From an uncultured Gammaproteobacteria bacterium (lineage in GTDB: Bacteria; Patescibacteriota; Patescibacteriia; Magasanikbacterales; GWA2-37-8): 64,000 nucleotides of DNA. Shown piece by piece: positions 7,816 to 58,888 of this stretch. Made by a program: the position numbers and the translations under genes. Position 1 is the stretch's first letter, and each line of letters opens with the position of its first letter. A model generated the notes under the pieces. It had not been told where the DNA came from and ran no database searches. It worked only from the letters and a program-made list of their open reading frames with translations. Location: the NCBI GenBank assembly GCA_964355175.1, contig CAYHBZ010000002.1, positions 396,537-460,536 of the forward strand. The letters run 5' to 3'.

Positions 7816-7841
7816 AAAATCTATATTGTAGTAATCATAGT

Positions 7842-7867
7842 AAAATCCCCTAATGTAGGGGATTTTT
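7842..7867 (+). terminator. intrinsic terminator after giant gene
   Basis: AAAATCCCCTA-ATG-TAGGGGATTTTT hairpin plus T-run. Confidence 0.6.
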
Positions 7868-7925
7868 ATTATTATATATTTTTGGCTAATTTTAGCCAAA
7901 ATAATTGATTTATTGGCCATACCCC

Positions 7926-7954: not shown

Positions 7955-8072
7955 AATCAGTTAAAATCAAATTTAACACCACGAATTATTGCGCCAGGTT
8001 TTGAGAGAGGCCCTAGCAATACATATAGACAGCTAGGTTAATTCTCTCTCAAAGGAGAATTTTTTACTTGTC

Positions 8073-8084
8073 GTTCTTTACAAT
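8073..8084 (+). promoter_or_regulatory. GTTCTTTACAAT box, copy 1 (followed by long leader hairpin, about 8093-8140)
   Basis: Exact 12-mer shared with 8941-8952 and 10397-10408. Confidence 0.5.
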
Positions 8085-8245
8085 AAATAGTGCTGAGCCC
8101 ACATGAGATCAAGAATTTCTTGATTTGATGCGGGTTCAGTGCACACAGCATTGACGTCCTCCGCGATTTTGCGGATTCGTTCAGTGCTGCGTACTGCAGC
8201 CAGGTCACGCGCCCACCTCAGTGGCGTTTCGTTCAGGAGTTTCCG

Positions 8246-8779
8246 ATGACCACCGCAAAGCACCCCGATCCGAACCATCCGGACCCCGGCACCACCGAAG
8301 AGCCCGTCGTCGACAAGGCGAAGGGCGACACGGTGGTGACCACGACGACCACCACGAGCGTTTCGTCGGCCGAGCCCATCAAGGCAAAGCCGGTGGCGAC
8401 CACCGACACCACGGCTGGCAAGACGGCGACCCAAGAGCCCAAGAAGGGTGGCTGGCCGCTCGGGACCATCGCCGGAGCTGTCGTGCTCGGTCTTCTGCTC
8501 CTCGGCGGCGTCTACTGGTTCGGCAGCCACAACAGCAGCACGCCGGTCGTCCCGCCCATCGCGGTCGCCGGTTGCTGTCTTCCCCAGGCCACCGTCGCGA
8601 GCCCCTGCTGCCCGCAACCGCCGGCTCCGCCCCCGCCGCCCGCCCCCGTCGTCAAGAAGAAGACGGTCGGCGAGTGCGTCGCCCAAGCCGTCGCCGGCAT
8701 GGAGGTCGCCCATGAGGACGACCGCCTCGCCGCGATGGACGGCGCCCGCGAAGAATGCGAGGAAGAATACGGCAAGTAG
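8246..8779 (+). CDS. GC-rich cassette A: bitopic membrane protein (Thr/Pro-rich N-terminal region, one TM, Cys/Pro-rich C-terminal region), no recognised family
   Basis: AGGAG 6 nt before ATG; strong G/C at codon position 3 in this frame only; TM WPLGTIAGAVVLGLLLLGGVYWF preceded by KKGG. Confidence 0.65.
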   Translation: MTTAKHPDPNHPDPGTTEEPVVDKAKGDTVVTTTTTTSVSSAEPIKAKPVATTDTTAGKTATQEPKKGGWPLGTIAGAVVLGLLLLGGVYWFGSHNSSTPVVPPIAVAGCCLPQATVASPCCPQPPAPPPPPAPVVKKKTVGECVAQAVAGMEVAHEDDRLAAMDGAREECEEEYGK

Positions 8780-8940
8780 CCGTTCCTGTCTCGCGTCGCT
8801 ATGTCGGTTCGGCGGGCCCTCAGCAATGAGGGTCCGCCGGCCGACTGGCTCGAATAGGACCTTTGTAGATTCCACTAGGGAAACTCCAAAGGTCCCCTAG
8901 ATTACATTCTTTTGGAAACAAGAGGATGTTGATAGGAAAA

Positions 8941-8952
8941 GTTCTTTACAAT
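8941..8952 (+). promoter_or_regulatory. GTTCTTTACAAT box, copy 2 (TTGATA 12 nt upstream)
   Basis: Exact 12-mer; about 35 nt upstream also similar to the copy 3 region. Confidence 0.5.
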
Positions 8953-9196
8953 TAAAACCAACAAAATTTTTTCCCACCTAAAAAGAATTATTATTTATAG
9001 TAATTCACTCTCGGTGGGAAAAAGTGTGGCGGAAATTCCGTTGCATAGCCTCCGACAGAGTCCCAATTGGGGCAAGTGCCCCGCGTGCGGGCTACTCTGT
9101 TACAGCGACCATTTCTGGGAAGCTGACCGAACGGCCCGCACGGCCGGTGTTCCAGTGTCTTGGTTTCGTGGGGTGAAAGTCCCCTGGAGTACAGCG

Positions 9197-10192
9197 ATGA
9201 ACAAGAATTCGAAGTTCCACAACCTCAGCATCTTGCTGACCCTGGCCATGGGGATCATGGTCGCTTCCAATTCCTACGCCGACGTGGCCACGGCTCGCGC
9301 TCGTGCCGAAGCCGCTCGTAGCCAGGCCAATCGGGCTGAGGTGAAAGCGGTCGACGCACAGACTGCGGCCAACGCGGCCAAGACCGGCGCCACCAACGCC
9401 CAGACCGCGGCCGATCAGGCCAAGGTCGAAGCGACCGCGGTGGGCACCAAGGCGGCCACTGACCTCGCTACGGCGATCCGCGCCCTCAACGGTGCGGTCG
9501 GCGGTGCGCGTGCGGCAGCGGTCAACGGTGATCGTCAGCTCGAGCGCAAGTTCAAGGCGGAGGCCGAGCGCCTTCAGACCGAGATCGAAGCGCTCAAGAA
9601 GCGGGCGCAGCACGAGTGTGCGGCGTTCGATGACAAGGGCAGCCAGGCGGCCTGTCTGACCATGCTCGAGAAGATCAACGCCAAGAACGGCGAAGTCACC
9701 ATGCACGGGCAAGACAAGGACACGGAGGTCCAGATCGCCAAGGTGGGACAGCAGTCCAAGGTGGTCCAGGAGATCTTCGACAACGCAAACCAAAACATGG
9801 ACGCCATCAAGGCGATCCAAATGGGTTGCGTCAACCAGGCCTTCGTCGACAAGGACGGCGTCAGCAAGAGCAAGTGGGAATGCCCCAAGGACATGAAGCG
9901 CGGCCCGCAGTTGCGCTACGAGCTCACGAACGTCTCGAAGTACGGCGACCACAGCGTCGTCATCGAGCCGGCCGAGAGCGGTGGCAATTCCAAGTGGGGC
10001 AAAGTGCTCGGCTTCGGCGCCATCGGTGGTGCTGCTGGCGGTGCTCTTGGCTGGGCCTTCTTCCCGAACCATGAAACCATGGAAGATGGCAGCGTCATGC
10101 ACCGGAATTACACCGGTCTCGTCGCTGGCACGGCCATCGGTTTCGTGGTCACGGCGGTGGCCACCCTGGTCATCGAAGAACTGACCGAATAG
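9197..10192 (+). CDS. GC-rich cassette B: secreted Ala-rich coiled-coil protein with C-terminal Gly-rich hydrophobic anchors, no recognised family
   Basis: GGAG 7 nt before ATG 9197; signal-peptide-like MNKNSKFHNLSILLTLAMGIMVASNSYA; GC3-biased frame; 9014-9196 treated as 5' leader. Confidence 0.65.
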   Translation: MNKNSKFHNLSILLTLAMGIMVASNSYADVATARARAEAARSQANRAEVKAVDAQTAANAAKTGATNAQTAADQAKVEATAVGTKAATDLATAIRALNGAVGGARAAAVNGDRQLERKFKAEAERLQTEIEALKKRAQHECAAFDDKGSQAACLTMLEKINAKNGEVTMHGQDKDTEVQIAKVGQQSKVVQEIFDNANQNMDAIKAIQMGCVNQAFVDKDGVSKSKWECPKDMKRGPQLRYELTNVSKYGDHSVVIEPAESGGNSKWGKVLGFGAIGGAAGGALGWAFFPNHETMEDGSVMHRNYTGLVAGTAIGFVVTAVATLVIEELTE

Positions 10193-10396
10193 GTCAACGG
10201 GTGAGGAGATCACCCCAAAGGATTGCAAGTGTGTTGGTTCACTTGCGCCAAATCTCGGTGTAGCTTATCTTGTCCCGCATTCGCGGTACGAGAGAAAGTT
10301 CACTAAACCGGTGGCGTGAACGATGGCTCAAATAGAGCTGTCGGTCACGCCCCAACAACTATCTTCTGTTTTTCAAACAGGGGATTGAGTTGGTAA

Positions 10397-10408
10397 GTTC
10401 TTTACAAT
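10397..10408 (+). promoter_or_regulatory. GTTCTTTACAAT box, copy 3 (TTGAGT 12 nt upstream; followed by hairpin, about 10426-10476)
   Basis: Exact 12-mer. Confidence 0.5.
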
Positions 10409-10641
10409 TTATTTCGTTAGATTTTCTCATACAGGACATAGGATATTTTTTGTATCTTGTGTCCTGTGTGAGAAGCCCCCAGTGGGGGTTGCCTGGGTGA
10501 AAACCCGACTAGGTCGGGGCGTTCGCTCCGGCAATTCCTCACTAGGGTGGTAAAAACGCCATCCGGACGGGTCAACTTCGACCTTTTCGGTAAAGTAGCA
10601 GTGTCTTTCTTTGTCCGCCCTTTAGTGGGCCGGAGGTTCTG

Positions 10642-12063
10642 ATGCGTAACCGGTTTCAATTGGTCGCGACTCTCGCGATGGCGGCTGCAGCCTGTGCAGC
10701 GTGTGGTGTCATCGAACATCCGGCCGATGCGGTCGTGATCGTGGTCGAAAAAGACGCCAGCAGCCAGGATGTCCAGCAGGACAACGGTCCGGCGCAGCAG
10801 CCCGAGATCGCGCAGACGGCCGACATCGCGCAGGACAACGGTCCGGCGACGAAGCCTGAGTGCGCGGTCGACAGCGACTGCGACGACAAGAACCCCTGCA
10901 CGACGGACGTCTGCGGCAGCAACGCCTGCGTCCACGTGGCCAACTCGGTCTCGTGCGACGACGGCAACGCCTGCACCAGCAACGACAAGTGCGGCTCCGA
11001 GAAGTGCTCGGGTGACCAGAAGGTCTGCGACGACAACAACCCCTGCACCGACGACGGCTGCGTCAGCGACGGCACCTGCCTGCACGGCGTCAACATCGTC
11101 AACTGCGACGACAGCGACGCCTGCACGGAAAAGGACCAGTGCGCCAACGGTAAGTGCGTCGGCCAGGTGAAGTCGTGCGACGACAAGGACAACTGCACGA
11201 CGGAATCGTGTGACAAGCTCAACGGGTGCTCGTCCACTCCGGTCGTCTGCCAGGACGCCGGGGATCCGTGCACGACGGAATCGTGCGACAAGGCAACGGG
11301 CAAGTGCTCGTCCACCACCGACTGCGACGACAAGGACGTCACCACGTTGGATGCCTGTGAACCGCTGCTCGAGACCGTGGGAATGGAGAAATGCCTCCAC
11401 ATCAAGATGCAGACCAAGTGCACCAAGAATGCGGATTGCGACGAGGACGGCGATCCGTGTTCGTTCGAGTTCTGTTCCCAGATCGGCTACTGCGCCAGCA
11501 AGTGGAAGTTGTGCGATGACGGAGACTACTGCACCCAGGACGAATGCGTCCCTCAGGCCGACTACGCCTGGTGCAAGAGCACTCAATACTCATGCGACGA
11601 CTACAACGCCTGCACGCTGGACTCCTGCACCAACGGCTACTGCCAACACAAGGGCAACGCCGCCATGTGCGACGACAAGGACTCCACCACCGCCGACTCG
11701 TGCAACCCTTCCCAGGGCTGCGTCAACACGCCGATTCCTCAACCCGGCGTGCCGAGCTCGACTCCTCCCTCGAATCCCTCGACCTGTGCGGCCTGGGGAG
11801 CGTGGATTTACTTGCCCACGGGCAACTGGCGCGGCGGCTATGACCTGACCGGTTCGTCTTCGCAAGAAACGGACCTGACAATCAGCGTCGACCAGTGGTA
11901 CGGCTTCAGCAACGCTCATTCTGTGTGGGCGTGGCTCAAGCCGTGGGGCAGTGCGGTACCGGCAAGCGTCAAGTGCACTGATCGGTGTGGTGTGGTCTTC
12001 CCCGCGAAGATCAGTGCCATGGCGGGTGGCTTCATCGCCATCTGCAGCACCGACCAGAAGTAG
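10642..12063 (+). CDS. GC-rich cassette C: Cys-rich repeat lipoprotein/secreted protein (tandem C-D-D-x-N-x-C-T-x-D-x-C units, Dicty_CTDC-like)
   Basis: GGAGG 5 nt before ATG; N-terminus MRNRFQLVATLAMAAAACAAC (signal/lipobox-like); 12 or more repeats of ~24 aa with spaced Cys; unrelated ~120-aa Trp-rich C-terminal domain. Confidence 0.75.
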   Translation: MRNRFQLVATLAMAAAACAACGVIEHPADAVVIVVEKDASSQDVQQDNGPAQQPEIAQTADIAQDNGPATKPECAVDSDCDDKNPCTTDVCGSNACVHVANSVSCDDGNACTSNDKCGSEKCSGDQKVCDDNNPCTDDGCVSDGTCLHGVNIVNCDDSDACTEKDQCANGKCVGQVKSCDDKDNCTTESCDKLNGCSSTPVVCQDAGDPCTTESCDKATGKCSSTTDCDDKDVTTLDACEPLLETVGMEKCLHIKMQTKCTKNADCDEDGDPCSFEFCSQIGYCASKWKLCDDGDYCTQDECVPQADYAWCKSTQYSCDDYNACTLDSCTNGYCQHKGNAAMCDDKDSTTADSCNPSQGCVNTPIPQPGVPSSTPPSNPSTCAAWGAWIYLPTGNWRGGYDLTGSSSQETDLTISVDQWYGFSNAHSVWAWLKPWGSAVPASVKCTDRCGVVFPAKISAMAGGFIAICSTDQK

Positions 12064-12330
12064 GCGGGGCTCAGGGGGTCTAACGGAAAAAGTTTTTGCT
12101 CTTTGGTAAAAGCAAACGGAAGGAGGTGTTCCTTTCGATAGGCCATTTCGGCCACCCATGCCAGAGGCGAGCGATCGCTAAAGGCTGGTCAACTAGGGGT
12201 GGTGTTGCTTCACCGCACACCACCCCGACCATCTCTAGCTCACAATATCTGTTGTGATCTGAAGATGGAAATAGCAATATGTCCATGACAAAAATACCAC
12301 CCTTCTCTCGGGCGGTTTTTTGTTTTTTAA

Positions 12331-12356
12331 GATTCCTCGCTACGCTCGGAATGACA
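12331..12356. repeat. REP-like element, half site (GATTCCTCGCTACGCTCGGAATGACA)
   Basis: Reverse-complement orientation of the GTCATTCCGAG...GAGGAATC family seen five more times. Confidence 0.6.
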
Positions 12357-12358
12357 AC

Positions 12359-13741
12359 TTAGACCTTGGCACTCCAATAACCCCATACTGCCCACCACCA
12401 CCAGATCACCGGGGTGTGGTGAAGCATGTTATCAGAAGCACTCAAAGTGAGATAAACAAAGATGCTAGTGATGAATACAAAATTTGTCCAAGCATTTTTT
12501 TTGCCCCATTTTATTTCTCGATAAAGTAAACTGATAAAAATTCCAATATACAGAGCTAGGCCTATAAGTCCGGATTCAAACCCAATTTTGAGATAATCAT
12601 TATGGGCCTCGGAAGTGGAGTCCCAGATGTTTTCCACCCCTTTATTATCATCCCAAACTTTGGCAAAGCTACCATAGCCGTAGCCAGTGAGAGGGTGTTT
12701 GCTCCAAAGTGGAATTACTTTATTAAAAAGATCCGCGCGCCAAGAGATAGAGTCGGCTTCCATGTTGCGGCTGGTCATACGGGCCACGAGCGGGCTTTGC
12801 TGTAGGTTTACATTTAGGGTAGTTTTGAGCCAATAATTTATTGGGAAGAATAGTCCATACAATATTAAAATTCCGGCGGTAAAAATAATGGTTTTTTCGC
12901 GAGCATATTTGAGGCCAATAGCCAATAAAAATATGGCCAAACCAATCCAGGCAATGCGGGTATAGGTAAGAGCGATAGCTACGGCCAAGAATACCATGGT
13001 CAAAACATATAGTTCACCTTTGGATTCTTTAAATAAATTTGGTTTAAATTTGAGCAGTTTGCTGGCGTGCTCTAGGTAATTATGATATTTATGAAACAAA
13101 AATATAAATAAAATTAGGGAAAAAGTGGCTAGGATATTGGGGTGGGCGAAAGTGCCATAGATGCGATTGGGGGTGCCGTCGATATCCATGCCGGTTTTGG
13201 TAATAAACTGGTAAATAGCCAGTAAGAATGTGGCAATGCCGGAAGAAATAAACAACCAAAAGAAAATTTTATCAAAAAATTCACCGTGTTTGCGGCGTAA
13301 AATATAGCTCATTCCAAACAGGGCAAATAGGTTGGCGCCTTTGAGAGTTTCGGTGATAGTGGCCATTGTATCAAAGCTCCAGAAAAAAGTGGCGCCACTC
13401 CAGACTATAAAAGCTATCCATATTCCGGTCAAAGGAACATTTTTAAATTCGCTAAAATGTTTGTAAAAAAATATTACGGACCAGGCTAATAGTAACAATG
13501 ATACGGCCGCGTTGAGATTGAGGTGAATGGCGTTGTAGGAAAAAATGACATAGTCGCGCCAGTAGTCCATGGTCGGGCGGGCTAGCAATAGGGTGAGTAG
13601 GGCATAGTCGCCAAAGAACTTGTAGAGTACGATGACCACGATGGCCAAGAGGGCTAGGATATCGCCGCCGGTGGTGGGATTGAAAATGGTAAAAATTAGT
13701 AGTCCGCCGATGAGCCACTGGGTAAGGGAGAGCTTGTTCAT
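12359..13741 (-). CDS. O-antigen ligase/Wzy-like polytopic membrane protein
   Basis: 460 aa, 10 or more TM helices with a large loop in the C-terminal half, typical of the Wzy_C/O-antigen ligase family. Confidence 0.6.
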   Translation of the reverse strand: MNKLSLTQWLIGGLLIFTIFNPTTGGDILALLAIVVIVLYKFFGDYALLTLLLARPTMDYWRDYVIFSYNAIHLNLNAAVSLLLLAWSVIFFYKHFSEFKNVPLTGIWIAFIVWSGATFFWSFDTMATITETLKGANLFALFGMSYILRRKHGEFFDKIFFWLFISSGIATFLLAIYQFITKTGMDIDGTPNRIYGTFAHPNILATFSLILFIFLFHKYHNYLEHASKLLKFKPNLFKESKGELYVLTMVFLAVAIALTYTRIAWIGLAIFLLAIGLKYAREKTIIFTAGILILYGLFFPINYWLKTTLNVNLQQSPLVARMTSRNMEADSISWRADLFNKVIPLWSKHPLTGYGYGSFAKVWDDNKGVENIWDSTSEAHNDYLKIGFESGLIGLALYIGIFISLLYREIKWGKKNAWTNFVFITSIFVYLTLSASDNMLHHTPVIWWWWAVWGYWSAKV

Positions 13742-14847: not shown

Positions 14848-14902
14848 GTCATTCCGAGTGTAAGGAGGAATCTTTAAGATTCCTCACTTTGTTCGGGATG
14901 AC
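14848..14902. repeat. REP-like element, full palindrome (two inverted half sites)
   Basis: GTCATTCCGAGTGTAAGGAGGAATC-TTTAA-GATTCCTCACTTTGTTCGGGATGAC. Confidence 0.65.
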
Positions 14903-14911
14903 AAATTATAT

Positions 14912-18095: not shown

Positions 18096-18125
18096 CAGTT
18101 ATTTTAGCGGGTATTTGCTTGCATA

Positions 18126-18154
18126 TTGACAGGCGCTGGTTTTTTTGATTTAAT
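18126..18154 (+). promoter_or_regulatory. sigma70-like promoter of cassette D
   Basis: TTGACA, 17-nt spacer, TTTAAT; same hexamers as cassette E promoter. Confidence 0.55.
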
Positions 18155-18306
18155 AATAAGTCGTTTGTTCTTTATTTGGCAGGATAATTTTGGATTAAAA
18201 TTTTTAATTCAGAGTTATCGTGCCAACTTTCTCAATGCGTGTCGGCGAAATGCGTCGATATGTAAAGAGAGGTGCGAGAGCCTACATGGTAGGCAGGAGA
18301 GCAGGA

Positions 18307-19122
18307 ATGGCAGACAGCAGCCACAACGTTACTCAGGTCGGCATCACCGTCGGGCCGCCCAACGCCGATCTCGGCAGTGTGGTGGTTCGTCAGGAGGCGG
18401 CCAGGGCGGATCTCAATGAGCGGCGTACGCATCTCAGCTTGGTTGTCAAGCCCTCGGTCGATGATCTGGTCGCGCGGCTGAATGTCGAGCGGCAGGAAGT
18501 CGACCGCATCGGCGCGCTGGTCGATGCGGTAGAGCGCGAACAGGCGAAGAGCGTCAAGCACTTCGAATCGACGCTCGGCGGGCAGGCGCGGCTCTGGAAG
18601 AAGGGTTTCGACGCCCATGAGCGCTCGATCTTCTGGGTCAAGCTCCTCGGCGTCGTCGGCCTGGTCCTGGTCGGTATCGTCCTGGTCCTGAACCTGTCGT
18701 CCTCCTCGGACATCTCCACGGCCAAGTCGGAAGCCATCTCGGCCAAGACCACCGTGGCGGAGTTCAAGAAGGCCACCCAAGGCGAGGTCGTCAAGATCAA
18801 GAAGAGGCTCGATGCCAACAAGCTCGACATGGATCAGCTCAAGGATCAGATCAAGGTCGTCGGGCTCAAGGCTGACAAGAGCGTCGTCACTCGCATGGGC
18901 GAAGAGCTCAAAGAAGCCAACATCGAGCAGGACGGTCGGATCCAGGACATCGCCACCGCGATCATGGGCAAGGCCGACATAGCCGATCTCAAGAGCGTGA
19001 GGAGCGCAGTCGCGCAGGTTCGCCGGGCCAACGGCAAGGTGAACACGAAGATGACCAGGCTCGAAGCTCAGGTCCTGGAGCTCAAGGCCCAACTCCAGGC
19101 CCAACAGCCCAAGACCATGTAG
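18307..19122 (+). CDS. GC-rich cassette D: bitopic membrane protein with extracytoplasmic coiled coil, no recognised family
   Basis: AGGAGA 6 nt before ATG 18307; TM WVKLLGVVGLVLVGIVLVLNL; heptad-like K/D/L-rich C-terminal half; GC3-biased frame. Confidence 0.65.
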   Translation: MADSSHNVTQVGITVGPPNADLGSVVVRQEAARADLNERRTHLSLVVKPSVDDLVARLNVERQEVDRIGALVDAVEREQAKSVKHFESTLGGQARLWKKGFDAHERSIFWVKLLGVVGLVLVGIVLVLNLSSSSDISTAKSEAISAKTTVAEFKKATQGEVVKIKKRLDANKLDMDQLKDQIKVVGLKADKSVVTRMGEELKEANIEQDGRIQDIATAIMGKADIADLKSVRSAVAQVRRANGKVNTKMTRLEAQVLELKAQLQAQQPKTM

Positions 19123-19185
19123 TCCGTTCCCGATCTGTTCGGGCACTTGTAGTTTAGCCTTGATTTCTGAAGGCAAAAGCTCGGT

Positions 19186-19300
19186 GAGGACGCAAAATCC
19201 CCCCAAGGGTGTGTCGTTTACTCGACACTACCTGCTTAGTTCGCAAAAAATTGTTTGCTGAGCAGAATAAAAAATCCGCTATTATGGTGGATTTTTTAAT
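19186..19300 (+). repeat. 3' repeat R1, copy 1 (three hairpins, the last a terminator)
   Basis: About 80% identical to 20118-20238; bulged hairpin GGTGTGTCG-TTTACT-CGACACTACC; ends AAAAAATCCGC...GGTGGATTTTTT. Confidence 0.6.
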
Positions 19301-19330
19301 CTAAAATATGCTGTTTTTAGGTCAGTAGTA

Positions 19331-19359
19331 TTGACAAAGTAGGATTTTTATGTTTTAAT
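19331..19359 (+). promoter_or_regulatory. sigma70-like promoter of cassette E
   Basis: TTGACA, 17-nt spacer, TTTAAT. Confidence 0.55.
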
Positions 19360-19504
19360 AGTTCATTAGATTGTTCTTTTTAATCAATTCGCGCGACAAT
19401 TATAAATTAAAATTTTTCAATTTATAATCGTCGTGCGAATTTCAGTTTATCAATGACGGCCAGTCGGAGGTTCCGATTGGTTCAGCTCTTTCTGCGAGGT
19501 GAGC

Positions 19505-20074
19505 ATGGTTGATTTCAATCCCCCGGATCCAGTGGATCCAGAGAAGAAAAAGAAGCCTTCGTCGGCTGTGGAGACAGACCACAATTGGGAAGCCTGGGCC
19601 AACGATAATTCGGTCGATGACGGCAGTCATCCTCTGCCTGGTGAAGCCGAATACGTCGGACGGTCCGACCTTCCCATGACACGGGCACAGAAAGAGCGCA
19701 TCGCCGCGATCGTAGTCGGTACGGCCTTCCTGGTGTTGGTTTTCTTTGTCATCAATTTCGCTATCGGCAACAAGCTCAAGCATTCTGAAGCGGCCTCGTC
19801 CAACGAGGCTGGCAAGCAGAGCGCTCAGGCAAGTGCCGAAGTAGAATTGAAGGCAGAAGAAGCCGCCTCAGAGCAGGATCATACGGTCTCGCTGCCGGAT
19901 CACGCTTCGCAGGAAGATGATCTGGACGATGCTCGCGCGACCATCAAGGTCGTCGGTTTGGAGAAACGGCGCGTTCGAGATCCAGAGATGGAGCGGATCG
20001 CCGCAACCATCAAGATCGTGCCACTGCGTGTCAGTCCTGTCGCGGTACCGCTTCCAGCGGCCGCTACTCAGTAG
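19505..20074 (+). CDS. GC-rich cassette E: bitopic membrane protein with acidic C-terminal region, no recognised family
   Basis: GAGGTG just before ATG 19505; TM IAAIVVGTAFLVLVFFVINFAIG preceded by RAQKER; GC3-biased frame. Confidence 0.6.
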   Translation: MVDFNPPDPVDPEKKKKPSSAVETDHNWEAWANDNSVDDGSHPLPGEAEYVGRSDLPMTRAQKERIAAIVVGTAFLVLVFFVINFAIGNKLKHSEAASSNEAGKQSAQASAEVELKAEEAASEQDHTVSLPDHASQEDDLDDARATIKVVGLEKRRVRDPEMERIAATIKIVPLRVSPVAVPLPAAATQ

Positions 20075-20117
20075 TAGTCAAACATACTTTGAACCTAAAA
20101 GTGTGTGAGACTCCTGA

Positions 20118-20238
20118 ACAGGACAAAAAATCCCCAAAAGGGTGTGCCGACTGAAAAGTCGGCACTACCTGCTTAATCAATAAAACATTGTTTATTGAGC
20201 AGAATAAAAAATTCACTTTGAAAGGTGGATTTTTTAAT
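20118..20238 (+). repeat. 3' repeat R1, copy 2
   Basis: Same three-hairpin layout as 19186-19300; stem 1 differs by paired substitutions (GGTGTGCCGAC / GTCGGCACTACC). Confidence 0.6.
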
Positions 20239-20245
20239 TAGTTTT

Positions 20246-21136
20246 TTATTGTCCGGTAATTAGGCACGCTACCGGTCCGTTAAATTTCCAATTATTTTTT
20301 ATGGCTTGATGTAATCCTGCCACGGCCAAAGCGCTGTTGGGTGAAAGTTTTATTTTTTCTGTTCTAGATGTCAGTTGTATTGCTGAGGTTATTTCTGTAT
20401 TGCCGGCTACCCAACCAAACCCACGATTTTGTTTTAACGCTTTTAGTACGGCTGGTTTTCTGAGTGCGATTTTATCCACTATCGCTGTTGCCAGAGATTC
20501 ATTTTCTATTTCACAGCGTAATTGTGAAAAATTTTGCGCCATTGGATGTACTGATGCGGTCTGTACTATATGTATCTGAATTTTTAATTTTAATTTTTTA
20601 AATCCTTCGTCGAGACCCAGAGCGGTAGTACCAGAAGAAGTCGGCACAAACACCGCGGACAGGTTTTTTATTTTGGATAATTCTTTGGCCAGTTCAAAAT
20701 ATCCAAGTAGAGCGATGTCATCGGTCGATTGACGCAGCCATAGCGCTCGATTATTTTTTTCTAACTGAAAAGCGGATTGTTTGGGTTTTTTTATTTGGGT
20801 CAGAGTGATATTTCTATCCACTAGTTTTTGTAATTTTTTTAGTTTGGCTAAATCTATTTTTTCACCCACAAAGATTTGCAGAGTAATTTTATTTTTACTT
20901 TTCTGGTTCAGTTTTTTGATATAGAACGCGCTGGCGAGAGCCGCGTTGCCGGAAGACGAAACTACAAAATCCTTTGTCCCTGTTTTGAGGTGAGCATCAA
21001 TCATGATTGGCAAAGAGCGGCCCTTGTGTGACAGTAGCGGGTGTAGATCTTCACGCTTAAAATACAGCGGCTGTGAGAGGCCGATGGTCTGGGCTAATTT
21101 GGGATGTTTGGTTTGGGGAGTGAGCATACTTGCCAA
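20246..21136 (-). CDS. PLP-dependent enzyme, Trp-synthase beta-like fold (threonine synthase/cysteine synthase-like)
   Basis: LLSHKGRS (Lys) and VSSSGNAALA motifs typical of PALP-family enzymes. Confidence 0.55.
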   Translation of the reverse strand: MASMLTPQTKHPKLAQTIGLSQPLYFKREDLHPLLSHKGRSLPIMIDAHLKTGTKDFVVSSSGNAALASAFYIKKLNQKSKNKITLQIFVGEKIDLAKLKKLQKLVDRNITLTQIKKPKQSAFQLEKNNRALWLRQSTDDIALLGYFELAKELSKIKNLSAVFVPTSSGTTALGLDEGFKKLKLKIQIHIVQTASVHPMAQNFSQLRCEIENESLATAIVDKIALRKPAVLKALKQNRGFGWVAGNTEITSAIQLTSRTEKIKLSPNSALAVAGLHQAIKNNWKFNGPVACLITGQ

Positions 21137-24840: not shown

Positions 24841-25008
24841 ATTATTAGACGGTATTTTTTTACATTGAACAAGCGAGGAAATAATTTGTGAGCCGTGAGG
24901 CGTGGCTAGCCCTGCTGTTTGAGGAGCCGAGCGACGAGTTCAGGGCTAGAGCCGAGTGGGTTGCAAATTATCCGAGCGGTTCACTGTAAAAAAATACCGT
25001 CTAATAAT
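24841..25008. repeat. palindromic GC-cored intergenic element E1
   Basis: Perfect 24-bp terminal inverted repeat (24841-24864 / 24985-25008); ~100-nt core homologous to 35968-36066. Confidence 0.65.
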
Positions 25009-35927: not shown

Positions 35928-36104
35928 AAATAAATATTTCCCCTGAACGAGCCGCTGAAAATCCGAGCAAATAATTTGTGAGCCGACGAGGCGTCTCTGG
36001 CCGTGCTGTTTGAGGAGCCGCGCGACGAGTTCACGGCCAGAGTCTCGACGGGTTGCAAATTATGCGAAGATTTTCACAGGCGAGAGAAGGGGAAATATTT
36101 ATTT
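35928..36104. repeat. palindromic GC-cored intergenic element E2
   Basis: 16-bp perfect outer inverted repeat (35928-35943 / 36089-36104); core homologous to E1 with paired substitutions. Confidence 0.65.
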
Positions 36105-49879: not shown

Positions 49880-51129
49880 CAAACTTCGCGCCTTTACCGG
49901 ATAGAATGCGTCCGCAAAATTTTGAAGAATTCTTTGGGCAGGAAGAAATTGTGGGCAAAGGGAAAATGCTCAGGAATCTAATTGAATCGGATCAATTGTC
50001 TTCGATAATTCTTTGGGGACCGCCGGGAGTGGGCAAGACTACTTTGGCGCAAATTATTGCCAAACAAACCAAAGCCCATTTTGTTTCCATTTCGGCCGTA
50101 ATGGGCGGCAAAGACGAATTACGCAAAGCCGTGGAAGATGCCGAATATCATCGTCGTTTGGAAAATAAACGCACGGTCTTATTTATTGATGAAATCCATC
50201 GCTGGAACAAAGCTCAGCAGGACGCACTTTTGCCGTATGTAGAAAAAGGTTTAATAATTTTGATTGGCGCTACTACTGAAAATCCTTCTTTTGAAATTAT
50301 CGGCGCTTTGCTTTCGCGCTCGCGGGTTTTTATTTTGAAATATTTGGAGAAAAAAGATTTGGTAAAAATTATCAATCAAGCTTTGGCTGATAAAGAGCGG
50401 GGGCTTGGAAATCTGAATATTAAAATTGAGAAAAAAGAAATAGAGATGCTGGCGGATTTGGCTTCAGGTGACGCGCGCGCCGCGCTCAATAGTCTAGATT
50501 TGGCCGTGAAATCCAAAAGTAATGTCGCCAACAAAGCTGTCATCCCGAACAAAGTGAGGGATCTTATAAAAATTACCGCCGAAGACATCAAAGAGGCTCT
50601 ACAAAAAACTCATTTGGTTTTTGATAAAAAAGGCGAAGAGTTTTATAATCTAATTTCAGCCTTGCATAAAAGTATGCGTGGCAGTGACGCGAATGCGGCA
50701 ATTTATTGGCTCGCTCGCATGCTCGAGGGCGGAGCAGATCCACTATATATCGCGCGTCGGGTATTGCGTTTTGCCAGCGAAGATATTGGTATGGCTAATA
50801 GCGAAGCGATGATCCAGGCCAACGCCGCCTATGATGCCTGTCATAAAATTGGTTTTCCGGAATGCAGTGTGCATTTGGCACAGGCGGTAGTGTATTGCGC
50901 AAAATCCAAAAAATCTAATTTGCTATACAGTGCCTACAACGAAGCCAAAGTGGATGCGCTGGCCACTTCACATTTGGGTGTGCCTATCCATCTGCGCAAC
51001 GCGCCGACGAAATTTATGAAAGAGATTGGGTATGGCAAAGATTATAAATATAATCCGGATTTTGATGAGCCGGTGGAGCAGGATTATTTGCCGAAGGAAT
51101 TGAAAGGGAGGAAGTATTTCGGAAAATAG
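49876..51129 (+). CDS. rarA: replication-associated recombination protein A (AAA+ ATPase)
   Basis: [13 protein letters not shown] Walker [12 protein letters not shown] Walker B; contains an in-frame REP-like insert at 50539-50563. Confidence 0.85.
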
Positions 51130-55312: not shown

Positions 55313-56116
55313 ATGATTCCATATTTCCAAGCCAATGCTTTTGCGATTGGGCCAATCACTATCCAAGTGTGGGGGTTGATGGTGTCACTTGGAATGTTGG
55401 TAGGATTGGTGATTTCTTATAAATATGCCCGTCGATATTTTTTGTCCGAACAGGTCATTTTGGATTTAGCGCTCTGGAGTATTATTGGCGGATTTATCAT
55501 GGCTCGAATTTTCCATATAATTTTTTACGCGCCGGATTATTATCTTTTACACCCGTCGGAAGTAATTTATTTTTGGCAGGGTGGAGCTTCGTCTATTGGT
55601 GGATTTGTCGGAGCCGCTTTGGCGATTTATATTTTTGCCAAAATAAAAAACTTTTCTTTTGTTGAGTTGCTGCCATATTTTGATGTGATGGCGGTGGGAT
55701 TGTGGATTGGATGGGCGATAGGGCGTATCGGCTGTTTCCTTATTCATGATCATCCAGGCACATTATCGCATTCGTTGTTGGCAGTGAGGTTTCCGGATGG
55801 CGCTCGATTTGATTTGGGTTTGTTTGATTCCATTTTAGCTTTTTTCATATTTTTTATTTCTGTTTTGTCTTTTAAAAAATTGGTTAAAATCCGTTATGGC
55901 CTGATATCCAAACTATCTTTTATGATATATGCTTTCGCGCGTTTTTGGTTAGATTTTCTGCGCGCATCGGATTTGAGTCAGTCTGATATGCGTTATGCCC
56001 ATCTCACGCCGGCGCAATGGGGGATGGCTGTGATTTTTATAGGATTGACTTTTTCTCTCTTTTTTGATAAAATCAAGTCCGATGTCATCCCGAATGAAAT
56101 GAGGGATCTTAAATAA
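55313..56116 (+). CDS. lgt: prolipoprotein diacylglyceryl transferase
   Basis: GRIGCFL motif and multi-TM profile; last 9 codons derive from a REP-like element. Confidence 0.85.
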   Translation: MIPYFQANAFAIGPITIQVWGLMVSLGMLVGLVISYKYARRYFLSEQVILDLALWSIIGGFIMARIFHIIFYAPDYYLLHPSEVIYFWQGGASSIGGFVGAALAIYIFAKIKNFSFVELLPYFDVMAVGLWIGWAIGRIGCFLIHDHPGTLSHSLLAVRFPDGARFDLGLFDSILAFFIFFISVLSFKKLVKIRYGLISKLSFMIYAFARFWLDFLRASDLSQSDMRYAHLTPAQWGMAVIFIGLTFSLFFDKIKSDVIPNEMRDLK

Positions 56117-56121
56117 TCACT

Positions 56122-56206
56122 GGAGAGGTCGCATAGTGGCCGAGTGCGCCGCCTTGGAAAGGCGGTATACCGCAAGGTATCGAGGGTTCAAATCCCTCTC
56201 TCTCCG
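56122..56206 (+). tRNA. tRNA-Ser (anticodon GGA), long variable arm, CCA not encoded
   Basis: Hand-folded: acceptor GGAGAGG/TCTCTCC, anticodon stem CCGCC/GGCGG with loop TTGGAAA, 16-nt variable arm, T-arm GAGGG-TTCAAAT-CCCTC. Confidence 0.85.
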
Positions 56207-56244
56207 CTGGGTCACGCTTATATGAGCAAAGGGTTCATATTCCA

Positions 56245-56276
56245 AAAACATCTCGACTAAGTCGGGATGTTTTTTT
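56245..56276 (+). terminator. intrinsic terminator after tRNA-Ser
   Basis: AAAACATCTCGACTAAGTCGGGATGTTTTTTT. Confidence 0.65.
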
Positions 56277-56405
56277 ACCAGATAAAAAAATAATTCTTCA
56301 TAAAAACACACCGTCGGGTGTGTTTTTATATTGACAAAAATGTATTTTTAGTATAGGCTCTAGCCTGATCGTTCTCGCGGATTTCTCGCGCTACAGGAGG
56401 ACATC

Positions 56406-56774
56406 ATGGCAGATTCTCTGCCGTTCCAAGAAGATCTGCGTAAGCCATTCCACATCTCAGTCTGCGACCGGATCGCTCTCTGCCTCACGGCAATGAGCAT
56501 CTCCGGTGGAAGGGAGATCCCGCTCGGCATCCAGGAGGTGACCAGAGACCTGGATCTCTTGGACAAGACCAAGGTCCCGGCCAAGGAACTGCCCAGTGTG
56601 ACAAAGGCCCTCTACGGCCTGCGGGTGATGTACGGCCCTCTCATGCCGACGGTTTCTCAGCGCCTGACCCAATCGATCGACCTCTTGGTCGTGTATCAAG
56701 AGGAGCTGGCCGAGGATGGCAAGCTGGATCGCGACCTCGTGTGGTTGCCGCCTGTCGTCGACCCGGTAGCCTAG
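56406..56774 (+). CDS. GC-rich cassette G: 122-aa soluble protein, no recognised family
   Basis: AGGAGG 5 nt before ATG; GC3-biased frame; TTGACA at 56331. Confidence 0.6.
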   Translation: MADSLPFQEDLRKPFHISVCDRIALCLTAMSISGGREIPLGIQEVTRDLDLLDKTKVPAKELPSVTKALYGLRVMYGPLMPTVSQRLTQSIDLLVVYQEELAEDGKLDRDLVWLPPVVDPVA

Positions 56775-56900
56775 CTGGTCTGTAGATTTTCACCCGGTCT
56801 TCGTCTATGTCCGGGTTGAGAGGTGTTCATACACCACTCCGTCCCGACTTAGTCGAGACGTGAATCACCGCAAGGTAGTGACGAGAACATCAGACATTCA

Positions 56901-56970
56901 GACTGTTCGCGCTCACTTAAGATTATAACTTGATTATAGTTTTAAGTGACGAACAGTCTTTTTGTTTTTT
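56901..56970 (+). terminator. long hairpin terminator of cassette G
   Basis: AGACTGTTCG..TCACTTAA-(AT-rich apex)-TTAAGTGACGAACAGTCT followed by TTTTTGTTTTTT. Confidence 0.6.
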
Positions 56971-57041
56971 CTAAAGGATATTTTATAGATACGGATGGCA
57001 ATACTTTTGGTTTGCATCAGCCGGATGAAAAGGCGGCATAA

Positions 57042-57070
57042 TTGACTTTTTTGAATTTAATCGCTAAAAT
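57042..57070 (+). promoter_or_regulatory. sigma70-like promoter of cassette H
   Basis: TTGACT, 17-nt spacer, TAAAAT. Confidence 0.55.
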
Positions 57071-57105
57071 GGTGTTCAGCCATTTTGGCTTTTTGGAGTT
57101 TCGCC

Positions 57106-57327
57106 ATGAGTGTAAAATATCGTCCGGGAACCGGCAGGGAGCCGCGCATCTTCCATGAGAGTATGGGCTTGCCCAGCCGGACGGTCGTTCAGATCGACTG
57201 GTGGACCTGTCCGAACCTGATCGTGAAGGATGAGCAGTTCGGAAATCGCGAACTCTGTGACTTTCAGAACCCGTCTTGGGAACACAAGTGCCAGGGTTGC
57301 GGTGCCGATCGTCCCGATAAGTCCTAG
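57106..57327 (+). CDS. GC-rich cassette H: 73-aa protein with RanBP2-like zinc-ribbon (WWTC...C-x3-N-x6-C-x2-C-GA-x-RP)
   Basis: TGGAG 7 nt before ATG 57106; GC3-biased frame; C-terminal motif shared with cassette I. Confidence 0.6.
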   Translation: MSVKYRPGTGREPRIFHESMGLPSRTVVQIDWWTCPNLIVKDEQFGNRELCDFQNPSWEHKCQGCGADRPDKS

Positions 57328-57335
57328 GAGGACTC

Positions 57336-57362
57336 ATGCGTATCCGCGCACCCCCGCCTTAA
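57336..57362 (+). CDS. putative arrest-type mini-ORF MRIRAPPP*
   Basis: Stop of cassette H embedded in TAGGAGGA; ATG 3 nt after the SD; 8 codons ending RAPPP-stop; homologous to 58764..58793. Confidence 0.4.
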   Translation: MRIRAPPP

Positions 57363-57387
57363 AAAAGGCACAGGGAAGTAGCGGAAT

Positions 57388-57453
57388 AAAAACCGCCGCC
57401 AACCTGTTTTGTTTCCAAATACAATTGGAGATGGGATAGGCTGGCGGTTTTTT
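57388..57453 (+). terminator. long hairpin terminator of cassette H
   Basis: AAAACCGCCGCCAACCTGTTTTGTTTCCAA...TTGGAGATGGGATAGGCTGGCGGTTTTTT. Confidence 0.6.
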
Positions 57454-57455
57454 GT

Positions 57456-57484
57456 TTGACTTCCAGAGAGGGATTTGATAGTTT
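57456..57484 (+). promoter_or_regulatory. sigma70-like promoter of cassette I
   Basis: TTGACT, 17-nt spacer, TAGTTT; -35 abuts the terminator T-run. Confidence 0.45.
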
Positions 57485-57523
57485 TGATGGGCGCAAATTT
57501 CGCGCCAACCAGTGAGGAACACA

Positions 57524-57925
57524 ATGACTTGTGGTCAACGTCGCAAACTGCGTCTTGATATGATCGTGGTCAAGGGCTGGAACGGTCGTCGCCTCTCCAA
57601 GGGGTGTCGGAAGTACATACGCCGTCACCTGCCTCTGGAATGGCAGGCGATCGAGGATCGTGCTCAACAGGAGCGTGAGCTGGTGCGGCAGATCGAGCTG
57701 CACAAGGCGGCTGCTCGCAACAAGCAGACGGCTACGCGGCCGAGCTTCTCCGCGCCGTCGTTCGCTACGGCGAAGCCTGCACCGGTGCCGGTCAAGCCTC
57801 CGCGGGATCCATGGTGGACCTGCAAGGCCGAAACCAAGGGAGGTTATTTCTCCGGCGCCTGCAACGAGCTGAACTACAGTAATACCTCCTGCACCTACTG
57901 TGGTGCGGCTCGCCCGGCAGCGTGA
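57524..57925 (+). CDS. GC-rich cassette I: 133-aa basic protein with C-terminal RanBP2-like zinc-ribbon
   Basis: GAGGA 5 nt before ATG 57524; C-terminus PWWTC..(11)..C-NEL-N-YSNTS-C-TY-C-GAARP, paralogous to cassette H tail. Confidence 0.6.
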   Translation: MTCGQRRKLRLDMIVVKGWNGRRLSKGCRKYIRRHLPLEWQAIEDRAQQERELVRQIELHKAAARNKQTATRPSFSAPSFATAKPAPVPVKPPRDPWWTCKAETKGGYFSGACNELNYSNTSCTYCGAARPAA

Positions 57926-57931
57926 GGAATC

Positions 57932-57958
57932 ATGCACTACTCCACCGGACCGCCTTGA
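57932..57958 (+). CDS. putative arrest-type mini-ORF MHYSTGPP*
   Basis: Stop of cassette I embedded in TGAGGA; ATG 3 nt after; 8 codons ending GPP-stop. Confidence 0.35.
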   Translation: MHYSTGPP

Positions 57959-57988
57959 AATATAGGTGGGCAGGGCGGAGGAAGATTA

Positions 57989-58053
57989 CATCGACCACCA
58001 AACTGCTTTGTATGAAAATTTTTTATATAGAGCAGAGTGGTCGATGTTTTTTT
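57989..58053 (+). terminator. long hairpin terminator of cassette I
   Basis: CATCGACCACCAAACTGCTTTGTAT...ATATAGAGCAGAGTGGTCGATGTTTTTTT. Confidence 0.6.
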
Positions 58054-58064
58054 ATTTGAAATAC

Positions 58065-58093
58065 TTGACAAAAGCTCTATTTTTGTCTATAAT
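58065..58093 (+). promoter_or_regulatory. consensus sigma70 promoter of cassette J
   Basis: TTGACA, 17-nt spacer, TATAAT. Confidence 0.6.
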
Positions 58094-58197
58094 CATTAGT
58101 TAATTAATGGTCATCATATGATGCACGCCCAAAGAGGTTGGTCGTGTTTCATACCGTGATCCGTTAAGGAACATGGGCAACTCGCGTAGGGGGAAAT

Positions 58198-58746
58198 ATG
58201 TTGGAAATCATTTTGGAACCGAAGCTCAAGAACAAGTTCCTGACCGCTCGGGTCAAGGCGCATTGCGGGGTCATGACATGGTCGTTTTGCACCGCTGAAG
58301 GCGGTGTGGCGATCATCGAAGCGTTCGTCCGCGAACGCGTCTGGGGCTGGCAGGAAACTCGTCCGCTCTGCCGCCAGATGGAAGCGACTTTCCCCAAGGA
58401 TGCCAGCAAGTTGGCCGCCTGGCTCAACATGTTCGAGTCCTCCTCGTGCGATGTGGCCGTTCAGCCCATCCATCTCGTGGATCAAGCCGGCGCTTCCCTC
58501 GCTATCAGTGGCAACCAGCTGCATGATGGTGTGGTCGCTACGATCGGTACGGCCGTCTGCATGCTGGATCACTACCTCGTTCGCGGGGTGTTGCGCAACG
58601 GCGACTGCATCTCCGCGACGCAGCAGATGCTCCAGGCTGGCATGACCGACGTCATTTCGGAAAAGGCGTTTCGTGCTTTGACCGGTGGCATTCCGCTGTC
58701 CGGTTTCAACGAGTACGACTACCGTCGGATGGTCGGTCAACTCTAG
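58198..58746 (+). CDS. GC-rich cassette J: 182-aa soluble Cys-containing protein, no recognised family
   Basis: GGGGG 4 nt before ATG; clear GC3-biased frame. Confidence 0.65.
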   Translation: MLEIILEPKLKNKFLTARVKAHCGVMTWSFCTAEGGVAIIEAFVRERVWGWQETRPLCRQMEATFPKDASKLAAWLNMFESSSCDVAVQPIHLVDQAGASLAISGNQLHDGVVATIGTAVCMLDHYLVRGVLRNGDCISATQQMLQAGMTDVISEKAFRALTGGIPLSGFNEYDYRRMVGQL

Positions 58747-58763
58747 TCAAAGAGGAGGAGAAC

Positions 58764-58793
58764 ATGGTTTCTATCCGTGCTCCGCCCCGATAA
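58764..58793 (+). CDS. putative arrest-type mini-ORF MVSIRAPPR*
   Basis: AGAGGAGGAG then 3 nt then ATG, 17 nt after cassette J stop; 9 codons containing IRAPP. Confidence 0.4.
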   Translation: MVSIRAPPR

Positions 58794-58824
58794 AGGGCGA
58801 TAGGAAGGAGTACGGAGACAAAGA

Positions 58825-58888
58825 AAGCCGCGCACCAACCTATTTTGTTTCTAAATTTTTGGAAATAGAATAGGGTGCGTGGCTTTTG
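58825..58888 (+). terminator. long hairpin terminator of cassette J
   Basis: AAAGCCGCGCACCAACCTATTTTGTTTCTAAAT...GGAAATAGAATAGGGTGCGTGGCTTTTGTTTT; homologous to 57388-57453. Confidence 0.6.

Follow-up and report, generated by a model that had tools for sequence, protein, structure and literature searches.

R1, a structured RNA element at the 3′ ends of two GC-rich membrane-protein genes in a Magasanikbacteria lineage

Introduction

Why do two neighbouring genes whose products can barely be aligned with each other end in nearly the same folded sequence? The question is raised by a 64,000-nt stretch of DNA (positions 396,537 to 460,536 of contig CAYHBZ010000002.1, assembly GCA_964355175.1; hereafter, the window) from an uncultured member of the Magasanikbacterales, in the Patescibacteriota or Candidate Phyla Radiation (CPR). 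In this window, an element that we call R1 stands directly 3′ of each of two GC-rich open reading frames (ORFs), ORF1 and ORF2. An initial annotation, made from the sequence letters, described R1 as a structured repeat of about 115 nt and listed as its possible roles, beside termination, a protein- or RNA-binding site, a processing or stability element, or a recombination site. Here, we describe the copies of R1 in the window and in related genomes and ask what is selected in them. It is strongly supported that the R1 structure is under purifying selection as a sense-strand RNA.

Two copies of R1 and their predicted fold

That there are two copies, about 80% identical, was borne out: alignment of window positions 19150–19320 with 20085–20260 gives 81% column identity. 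Each copy folds, in this order, into a small CCC/GGG hairpin (P0), the hairpins H1 and H2, and a terminal hairpin, H3, with its U-tract. The parts are listed below, with covariance model (CM) scores and with the folding energies of the plus-strand RNA, whose z scores refer to dinucleotide shuffles.

19187–19297, + strand: R1 copy a; CM scores 114.2 and 104.9 bits; fold −41.2 kcal/mol, z −6.1
19194–19211, + strand: leader AAAAUCCCC (A-rich) and P0 (CCC/GGG) of copy a; invariant or nearly so in 14 distinct copies
19211–19228, + strand: H1 of copy a, GUGUCG/CGACAC with loop UUUACU; compensatory change
19232–19265, + strand: H2 of copy a, CUGCUUAGU...GCUGAGCAG, with many G·U pairs; found by RNAalifold and in the model-fitted alignment
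19269–19297, + strand: H3 of copy a, an A-tract, the stem AUCCGC/GUGGAU and U6; intrinsic-terminator type
20120–20235, + strand: R1 copy b; CM scores 126 and 125.4 bits; fold −44.8 kcal/mol, z −7.6
20125–20144, + strand: leader and P0 of copy b
20144–20165, + strand: H1 of copy b
20169–20202, + strand: H2 of copy b
20206–20235, + strand: H3 of copy b

Within the window, the block AAAATCCCCNAANGGGTGTG has 2 matches versus 0.06 expected, and the block CACTACCTGCTTA has 2 exact matches; all of them are the R1 sites. One detail of the earlier description has to be changed. It placed a conserved unpaired A in the 3′ arm of H1; when GGT is paired with ACC, the unpaired base is U 19229, which is U, C or A among the orthologues. 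This GGU/ACC extension of H1 competes with P0 and is nearly invariant, so that covariation speaks neither for nor against it.

At the gathering thresholds of Rfam 15, only two tRNAs pass in the window and no family matches R1. At E ≤ 10, over 2.5 kb around R1, the best match has 25.4 bits versus a threshold of 50; the sub-threshold matches are unrelated small RNAs or leaders that resemble terminators, at no more than 25 bits against gathering scores of 40–130. R1 is an RNA family new to Rfam, of a known general kind.

Covariation and constraint

R1 is present, once or twice, at the orthologous locus of nine related Magasanikbacteria genomes, and there are 15 copies in total, of which 14 are distinct. 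The model-fitted alignment of the 15 copies has 96.2% of its cells paired and compensatory change at 11 pairs, in 35 cells. Not one of 500 shuffles matched these values, and slid controls gave 38–49% pairing and at most 5 compensatory pairs. An independent MAFFT/RNAalifold run, which is not model-fitted, recovers the same helices. The initial annotation had argued for selection on structure, and would have dropped the idea had there been no further copies and no covariation, or had R1 belonged to a known Rfam family. Orthologous copies with covariation exist, there is no such family among the Rfam matches, and the argument stands.

The helices differ in what they contribute. In H1, 7 of 8 pairs have compensatory change and 93% of cells are paired. 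The change on both sides of its stem that was noticed between the window copies (GTGTCG/CGACAC in copy a versus GTGCCGAC/GTCGGCAC in copy b) is real, and the orthologues extend it greatly. Compensatory change affects two pairs of H2, where there are also many changes from G-C to G-U. H3 is found in 15/15 copies with 100% of cells paired and 2 compensatory pairs, its stem having changed from AUCCAC/GUGGAU to AUCACC/GGUGAU in two genomes (L021 and L023). P0 never varies and is without covariation support.

Which strand, and which nucleic acid, is folded? The alignment has G·U and A·C cells in a ratio of 42:5, with H2 holding 36 of the 42 G·U cells. This excess indicates that the folded species is the sense transcript and not an antisense RNA, and the species is probably not DNA.

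Averaged over pairs of copies, identity is 0.55 for the stem of H1 and 0.35 for the hairpin loops; therefore, H1 is constrained in shape only. It is 0.82 in H2, 0.94 in H3, and 0.77 in the leader and junctions, which, although unpaired, are thus constrained in sequence. The segments concerned are the leader, AGGAC-AAAAAUCCCC-AAGGGUG, and the junction, ACCUGCUUAGU. Such a constraint would fit recognition by a factor. As for the roles listed in the initial annotation, sequence can narrow them: factor recognition accords with the constraint on the leader, and a recombination site is argued against by the 42:5 ratio.

R1 is not a dispersed repeat

Protein-guided retrieval gave four homologues of ORF1, at 41–55% identity, and their contigs are syntenic: GHL15, ORF1, ORF2, and, on the opposite strand, the gene PALP, with R1 3′ of both ORFs. 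Five further loci were reached through PALP homologues at 81–65% identity, and a seven-copy CM finds R1 in all five, at 65–118 bits. L022 has two R1 copies. L020, L021 and L025 have one, 3′ of a single ORF1-like gene between GHL15 and PALP; this single ORF is GC-rich (58–59%) and, in L020 and L021, about 30% identical to ORF1 of the window. In L023 and L024, one copy is seen, a lower bound since these contigs stop within the GC-rich ORF. The window sequence itself is found identical in other assemblies. By the source names of its close PALP homologues, the organism belongs to Candidatus Magasanikbacteria.

The search for copies covered 64 kb, about 14% of the 463,850-bp metagenomic contig (ENA ERZ4201063 NODE_6). 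Run without filters on the window, a model of the 15 sequences picks out only the two copies, at 125 and 105 bits, and its remaining hits, at 27 bits or lower, are unrelated terminators; neither the window nor about 110 kb from related loci yielded a further copy by CM. The pattern CACTACCTGCTTAN{18,22}TGAGCAG has 4 matches in genome contigs, 4 in metagenome contigs and 0 in viral contigs. None of them fits the R1 model, and their gap lengths and contexts are wrong, so we regard them as chance matches; one, L005, is inside a metW-like coding region. The pattern AAGGGTGN{16,32}ACCTGCTTA is too loose, and none of the 80 matches listed in viral contigs fits the model. The full 3′ untranslated region (3′ UTR) has no blastn match in phage and plasmid collections. 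As far as seen, then, R1 appears limited to one locus in one Magasanikbacteria clade.

Across genomes, a-type copies group with a-type copies and b-type with b-type, which indicates that gene conversion is not homogenising them. The “repeat” of the initial annotation is real as to its two copies, but these are two paralogous 3′ UTRs and not members of a dispersed family.

Could R1 be a mobile or dispersed palindromic repeat, of the REP/BIME, ERIC, Correia or MITE type, that landed here twice? It is about 115 nt long, intergenic and hairpin-rich, and it has inverted ends, AAAAAAUCC ... GGAUUUUUU. These ends, however, are the A- and U-tracts of the terminator. In 64 kb there are two copies of R1, and a related locus has one or two, invariably flanked by GHL15 and PALP; none of the nine related genomes lacks R1 at this position, and there is no presence/absence polymorphism. 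The aligned flanks contain no target-site duplication or flanking direct repeat, and the exact-pattern scans of genome, metagenome and viral collections yielded chance matches only. We consider this origin very improbable.

It is scarcely credible, in turn, that R1 is the neutral leftover of a recent tandem duplication, with no function beyond the terminator. The copies do sit in a probable tandem duplication, but the paralogous R1s are still about 80% identical while ORF1 and ORF2 have diverged until they are barely alignable. The clustering by type leaves no room for homogenising gene conversion, and the sequence of H1 shifts with its pairing kept.

Two other hairpins of the window recall parts of R1. 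The terminator AAAATCCCCTAATGTAGGGGATTTTTAT at 7836–7870 (+), which belongs to an orphan gene of 1658 aa, opens with AAAATCCCC, as does the R1 leader, and, in appearance, the leader and P0 correspond to the 5′ half of a terminator of this kind. At 58003–58035 (+), within 57976–58070, an H2-like hairpin, CTGCTTTGTAT...ATAGAGCAG, is nested in the terminator of another GC-rich gene. The pattern CTGCTTN{10,30}AGCAG has three matches in the window versus 0.31 expected, namely this hairpin and the two H2s of R1, and with R1 models the new hairpin reaches 24 bits. Either a distant relative, since rearranged, or a recognition motif used in common may explain it.

R1 is part of a larger structured 3′ UTR

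R1 forms the 3′ two-thirds of a structured 3′ UTR of about 180 nt. As a conserved unit, it starts at the stop codon, whereas the initial annotation had placed the start about 65 nt farther 3′. In AGGAC, at the 5′ edge of R1, lies the 3′ strand of a helix; the other strand is the GUCC that directly follows UAG. The additional part, domain I, consists of the following.

19122–19191, + strand: domain I of copy a; GUCC 19122–19125 pairs with GGAC 19188–19191; seen in minimum free energy folds of all copies
19129–19143, + strand: hairpin Ha of domain I, copy a, enclosed by the GUCC/GGAC helix
19157–19174, + strand: hairpin Hb of copy a, at the tip of the long arm, CCUUG-UUUU-GAAGG; the outer stem covaries
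20075–20124, + strand: domain I of copy b, made of Hb and Hc
20082–20106, + strand: Hb of copy b, ACAUACUUU/AAAGUGUGU, closed by AGUC/GACU
20112–20123, + strand: hairpin Hc of copy b, UCCUGAACAGGA, 3′ of Hb

For 8 a-type UTRs, RNAalifold predicts 57 pairs, and 17 of these show compensatory change. In the copy b of L016, the outer stem of Hb is swapped whole, to UCUUCUGCCUU/AAGGUAGAAGA.

The genes that carry R1

The genes, promoter-like sites and leader around R1 are these.

18126–18154, + strand: promoter-like site of ORF1, TTGACA, 17 nt, TTTAAT; read from the sequence
18235–19122, + strand: ORF1, a 295-aa orphan predicted to be a single-pass membrane protein, helical/coiled-coil; GC 61%, GC content at third codon positions (GC3) 0.81
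19331–19359, + strand: promoter-like site of ORF2, TTGACA, 17 nt, TTTAAT, after TGT; conserved in orthologous loci
19386–19482, + strand: structured 5′ UTR of ORF2, with a 24-bp hairpin (19386–19441) and an 11-bp hairpin (19458–19482)
19505–20074, + strand: ORF2, a 189-aa orphan membrane protein; 57% GC
20246–21127, − strand: PALP, a pyridoxal phosphate (PLP)-dependent enzyme, convergent; its stop codon is 10 nt beyond the U-tract of copy b

Each of the two ORFs encodes a single-pass membrane protein in which long stretches are helical, and neither has a match in Pfam. The AlphaFold2 model of ORF1 is all-helical and of low confidence (predicted local distance difference test score, pLDDT, 44), which makes it unsuitable for a fold search. 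Among 1.84 billion proteins, the ORF1 family counts only 9 representatives. Orthologues of ORF1 are 30–55% identical and those of ORF2 42–54%, versus 73–96% for the neighbouring genes. ORF2 resembles ORF1 only weakly, at 27% over 85 aa (E = 0.01), and E values for other pairs range from 8e-4 to 9e-3; ORF2 is probably a diverged tandem paralogue of ORF1.

The −35/−10 pattern of the ORF1 site recurs upstream of ORF2 and of other GC-rich genes in the window. A consensus promoter scan, which requires A at position 2 of the −10 element, did not flag the ORF1 site. With promoters so close to consensus, the genes are probably well transcribed. In the 5′ UTR of ORF2, RNAalifold predicts 35 pairs from 5 loci, and 5 of the pairs show compensatory change; both hairpins are conserved, and GGAGG lies in or near the loop of the 11-bp hairpin. 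A related stretch of 41 nt, 71% identical, is found upstream of ORF1 (18165–18205 versus 19377–19417).

The parent genes of R1 have 54–62% GC in a genome of about 42% GC, which is also the window average, and the host genes beside them have a GC3 of about 0.36–0.39. Islands of 55–62% GC occur at about 8.0–12.3, 18.1–20.2 and 56.2–58.8 kb, the second of which holds R1. Since the orthologues of ORF1 and ORF2 stay GC-rich at 30–55% protein identity, a simple recent horizontal transfer that awaits amelioration does not explain their composition.

Evolution of the locus

Between the window and L014 to L019, neighbouring housekeeping proteins are 84–96% identical in amino acids and ORF1 and ORF2 35–55%, and the intergenic blocks that bear R1 are 82–92% identical in nucleotides. 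R1 scores 65–132 bits in genomes whose PALP is 65–84% identical to that of the window, and the ORF 5′ of it falls to about 30% amino-acid identity where PALP is still 73–77%. The two copies in the window are probably a tandem duplication of the whole cassette (promoter, ORF and 3′ UTR) in this sublineage; in the simplest history that would account for the loci, there was one ancestral cassette, duplicated in tandem in the sublineage of the window. Neither this probable duplication nor the tie to a hypervariable GC-rich gene family was seen in the initial annotation.

There are signs of recombination. In sliding windows, the segment 19076–19367 is 91–93% identical between the window and L016, and its flanks about 79%; between L014 and L016, the flanks are about 90% identical, the segment 76–77% and ORF1 28–55%. 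This discordance indicates recombination at the locus. It is tempting to ask, then, whether the intergenic blocks, R1 included, have a role as DNA, as homology anchors or as a specific site for swapping alleles of the hypervariable GC-rich ORFs between lineages. The discordant phylogeny of 19076–19367 speaks for it, as do the L023 and L024 contigs, whose ends within the GC-rich ORF fit population heterogeneity. Nevertheless, anchors have no need of compensatory changes or of the 42:5 ratio, which bespeak selection on a sense RNA, and recombination in conserved flanks can be a result of conservation and not its cause.

Integron attC sites are the obvious comparison for such a site. Like R1, they are structured elements with a bulged hairpin 3′ of a gene cassette, and the cassettes here are compositionally foreign and variable. 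R1 departs from attC in lacking R″/R′ core sites, as well as any one long hairpin of the bottom strand: in the 14 distinct copies, inspection showed no RYYYAAC ... GTTRRRY cores, the ends being AGGAC-A-rich and GUGGAUUUUUU, and in the same aligned copies there is no GTTRRRY motif at the 3′ boundary. R1 has three or four separate hairpins and is folded as sense RNA. Nor are the cassettes promoterless, each ORF having its own TTGACA/TTTAAT promoter-like site. R1 therefore lacks every attC feature tested, and no integrase or recombinase domain was found among the 27 ORF translations scanned, which are part of the ORFs in the window. We consider a DNA-level role improbable.

As separate observations, the L023 (7017–7177) and L024 (7012–7113) contigs stop within the GC-rich ORF just upstream of R1, and L023 carries a proline-rich repeat of the CCGCCCCCG type at the contig end. 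These ends fit assembly breaks caused by strain-level hypervariability at the locus.

A broader proposal would join the RNA and the recombination. R1, domain I and the structured 5′ UTR might be the constant frame of a CPR cassette system in which hypervariable GC-rich ORFs for surface proteins are swapped by recombination, the RNA of the frame being read by a dedicated factor, or released as a small RNA (sRNA), to control whichever allele is installed. We think this unlikely and offer it as speculation.

Function of R1

What, then, might R1 do for the genes that carry it? The reading that we prefer, with a probability of about 0.55, is that R1 is a terminator combined with a 3′-end stability and/or factor-binding module of a lineage-specific GC-rich membrane-protein gene. 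H3 would terminate the ORF transcript, judging by its anatomy: a core stem of 6 bp, extended by A-U pairs, precedes U6–7, where at least 5 U are expected of a terminator. Its location is that of the end of a transcription unit, with the ORF2 promoter 34 nt beyond copy a, and with PALP adjoining both copy b and, in the same way, the single copies of the relatives. In most genomes, H3 is a near-perfect palindrome between an A-tract and a U-tract, and it can therefore probably terminate the convergent PALP gene also. A 3′-terminal RNA domain would be made up of H1, H2 and the conserved leader and junction, and it would shield the transcript from 3′-to-5′ decay and/or dock a sequence-specific factor by which the stability or translation of the mRNAs is set.

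Both halves of this proposal have known counterparts. R1 is like intrinsic (Rho-independent) and partly bidirectional terminators in the stem-loop of H3 with its U6–7, in the A-tract upstream, and in its place at the end of a transcription unit and between convergent genes. It is unlike them in having about 150 nt of extra conserved structure (domain I, P0, H1 and H2) and conserved unpaired sequence, which termination does not need. The REP/BIME elements of enterobacteria and the “positive retroregulator” of Bacillus thuringiensis cry1Aa are stable hairpins at mRNA 3′ ends that are able to block 3′-to-5′ exonucleases. R1 resembles these stabilisers in having stable hairpins at the mRNA 3′ end, upstream of or including the terminator. 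However, REP/BIME are dispersed in high copy and R1 is at one locus, and R1 differs from stabilisers of this kind in its sequence-constrained single-stranded parts and multi-domain fold.

Several points weigh against the terminator-and-module reading. A plain stabiliser would need neither a conserved unpaired leader nor a structure of about 180 nt. There is hardly any variation in P0 or in the greater part of H2 and of H3, so that the evidence for pairing there is thermodynamic and does not come from covariation. The genomes sampled form a small clade, in which some of the compensatory cells go back to shared ancestry and are not separate events. Because the search covers about 64 kb of a 464-kb contig, copies elsewhere in the genome are possible. 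Finally, a simple terminator scan did not flag H3, owing to its low G-C content, with fewer than three uninterrupted G-C pairs by the rule of the scan.

An alternative is that the last 110 nt or so are released, by processing in the A-rich leader or at the boundary between domain I and domain II, as a 3′UTR-derived sRNA that would act in trans through AAAAAUCCCC and ACCUGCUUAGU. CpxQ, SroC and DapZ are sRNAs of this type, which use the terminator of the parent mRNA. R1 is like them in having one or two hairpins before a shared terminator, a conserved unpaired stretch, an A/U-rich stretch before the last hairpin and a U-tail; unlike them, it is known from sequence, in an uncultured CPR bacterium. 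The higher identity of the unpaired segments (0.77) than of the loops (0.35) agrees with this alternative, and the A-rich single-stranded leader (19193–19200 and 20124–20131) is a plausible endonuclease site. However, the leader also flanks domain I on the 3′ side, and a structural role there may account for its conservation. No internal promoter is seen upstream of R1, and no target complementarity has turned up, although no systematic target search was made; nor does presence at one locus point to control over many genes. On balance, release of an sRNA seems to us rather unlikely.

Four other candidates were rejected. A leader or riboswitch for a downstream gene is not compatible with the single-copy genomes, in which there is no same-strand gene downstream. 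In an antiterminator-like switch, the leader AAAAAAUCC would pair with the 3′ arm of H3, GGAUUUUUU, but the leader did not change when H3 became AUCACC/GGUGAU in L021 and L023, so that covariation lends the switch no support. A small peptide encoded within R1 is at odds with loop lengths that differ by 1, 2 and 4 nt and with substitutions that track base pairs and not codons. As for the template/variable repeat pair of a diversity-generating retroelement, the differences between the copies are not adenine-specific, and R1 is outside the ORFs.

Other GC-rich genes and repeats in the window

Eight genes in three islands (8000–12300, 18100–20240 and 56200–58800) have 57–69% GC and a GC3 of 0.61–0.87, and other genes have a GC3 of about 0.33–0.43. 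An origin of the islands as an assembly artefact was rejected, the arrangement recurring in independent ENA, Logan, NCBI and JGI assemblies. The intergenic regions read, which lie upstream of five of the eight genes, have a near-consensus promoter-like site, and each of the eight genes has a long structured 3′ end. The only one with a Pfam match encodes a protein with Dicty_CTDC repeats (10642–12063).

The third island starts directly 3′ of a tRNA-Ser (56122–56207). It has a second pair of paralogous 3′ modules, 57305–57440 and 58735–58885 (+), about 76% identical, which parallels R1 in another GC-rich island. Each module has a Shine-Dalgarno site, a mini-ORF with the motif RAPP and a long hairpin that ends ...CCAACCTRTTTTGTTTCYAAAT...TTGGARATRGRATAGG. 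The mini-ORFs, 57326–57352 and 58764–58793 (+), have strong Shine-Dalgarno sites, are directly 3′ of GC-rich genes and read MRIRAPPP* and MVSIRAPPR*. RAPP is a known ribosome-arrest motif (PMC7897499, PMC10951233). Here, it occurs in very short ORFs that stand just upstream of large terminator hairpins, not of Sec or YidC genes; the second mini-ORF is followed by a rhodanese/UPF0176 (TrhO-like) gene.

Two further repeats are intergenic. A palindromic repeat, TTTAAGATTCCTCGCTACGCTCGGAATGACAA, has copies at 12326–12361 and 14873–14908 (+) and, reversed, at 50538–50571 and 56083–56116, with 83–85% identity; of the copies read (12326 and 56083), the positions are at gene ends or just before the tRNA-Ser. 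Unlike R1, it looks like a genuinely dispersed hairpin repeat. The other, of about 86 nt, is found at 24866–24951 and 35956–36042 with 87% identity and a hairpin, CTAGCCCTG...CAGGGCTAG. Its copies are 11.09 kb apart, each adjoining the 5′ end of a minus-strand gene, and Rfam has no match to it at gathering thresholds.

Significance

On a conservative reading, R1 is one more narrowly distributed, terminator-associated 3′ UTR motif. Even so, to our knowledge very little is known of RNA-level regulation in the CPR. R1 is a structured RNA of a CPR bacterium, supported by covariation and without a relative in Rfam; it provides a ready covariance model for searching CPR genomes and a test case for 3′-end control of mRNA in these bacteria.

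The partner gene is unusual in its own right. It is hypervariable, it has kept high-GC codons across speciation in a low-GC genome, and its UTRs evolve more slowly than its coding sequence. If the proposal of a constant frame with exchangeable ORFs were true, a GC3 of 0.55–0.89 (genome, about 0.36) despite 30% protein identity would mean that mutation, recombination (biased gene conversion, for example) or selection acts in a special way on these genes. For CPR bacteria, a symbiotic way of life is generally predicted. R1 marks a hypervariable locus whose products are probably at the cell surface, and it may thus bear on the interaction of these bacteria with their hosts or phages.

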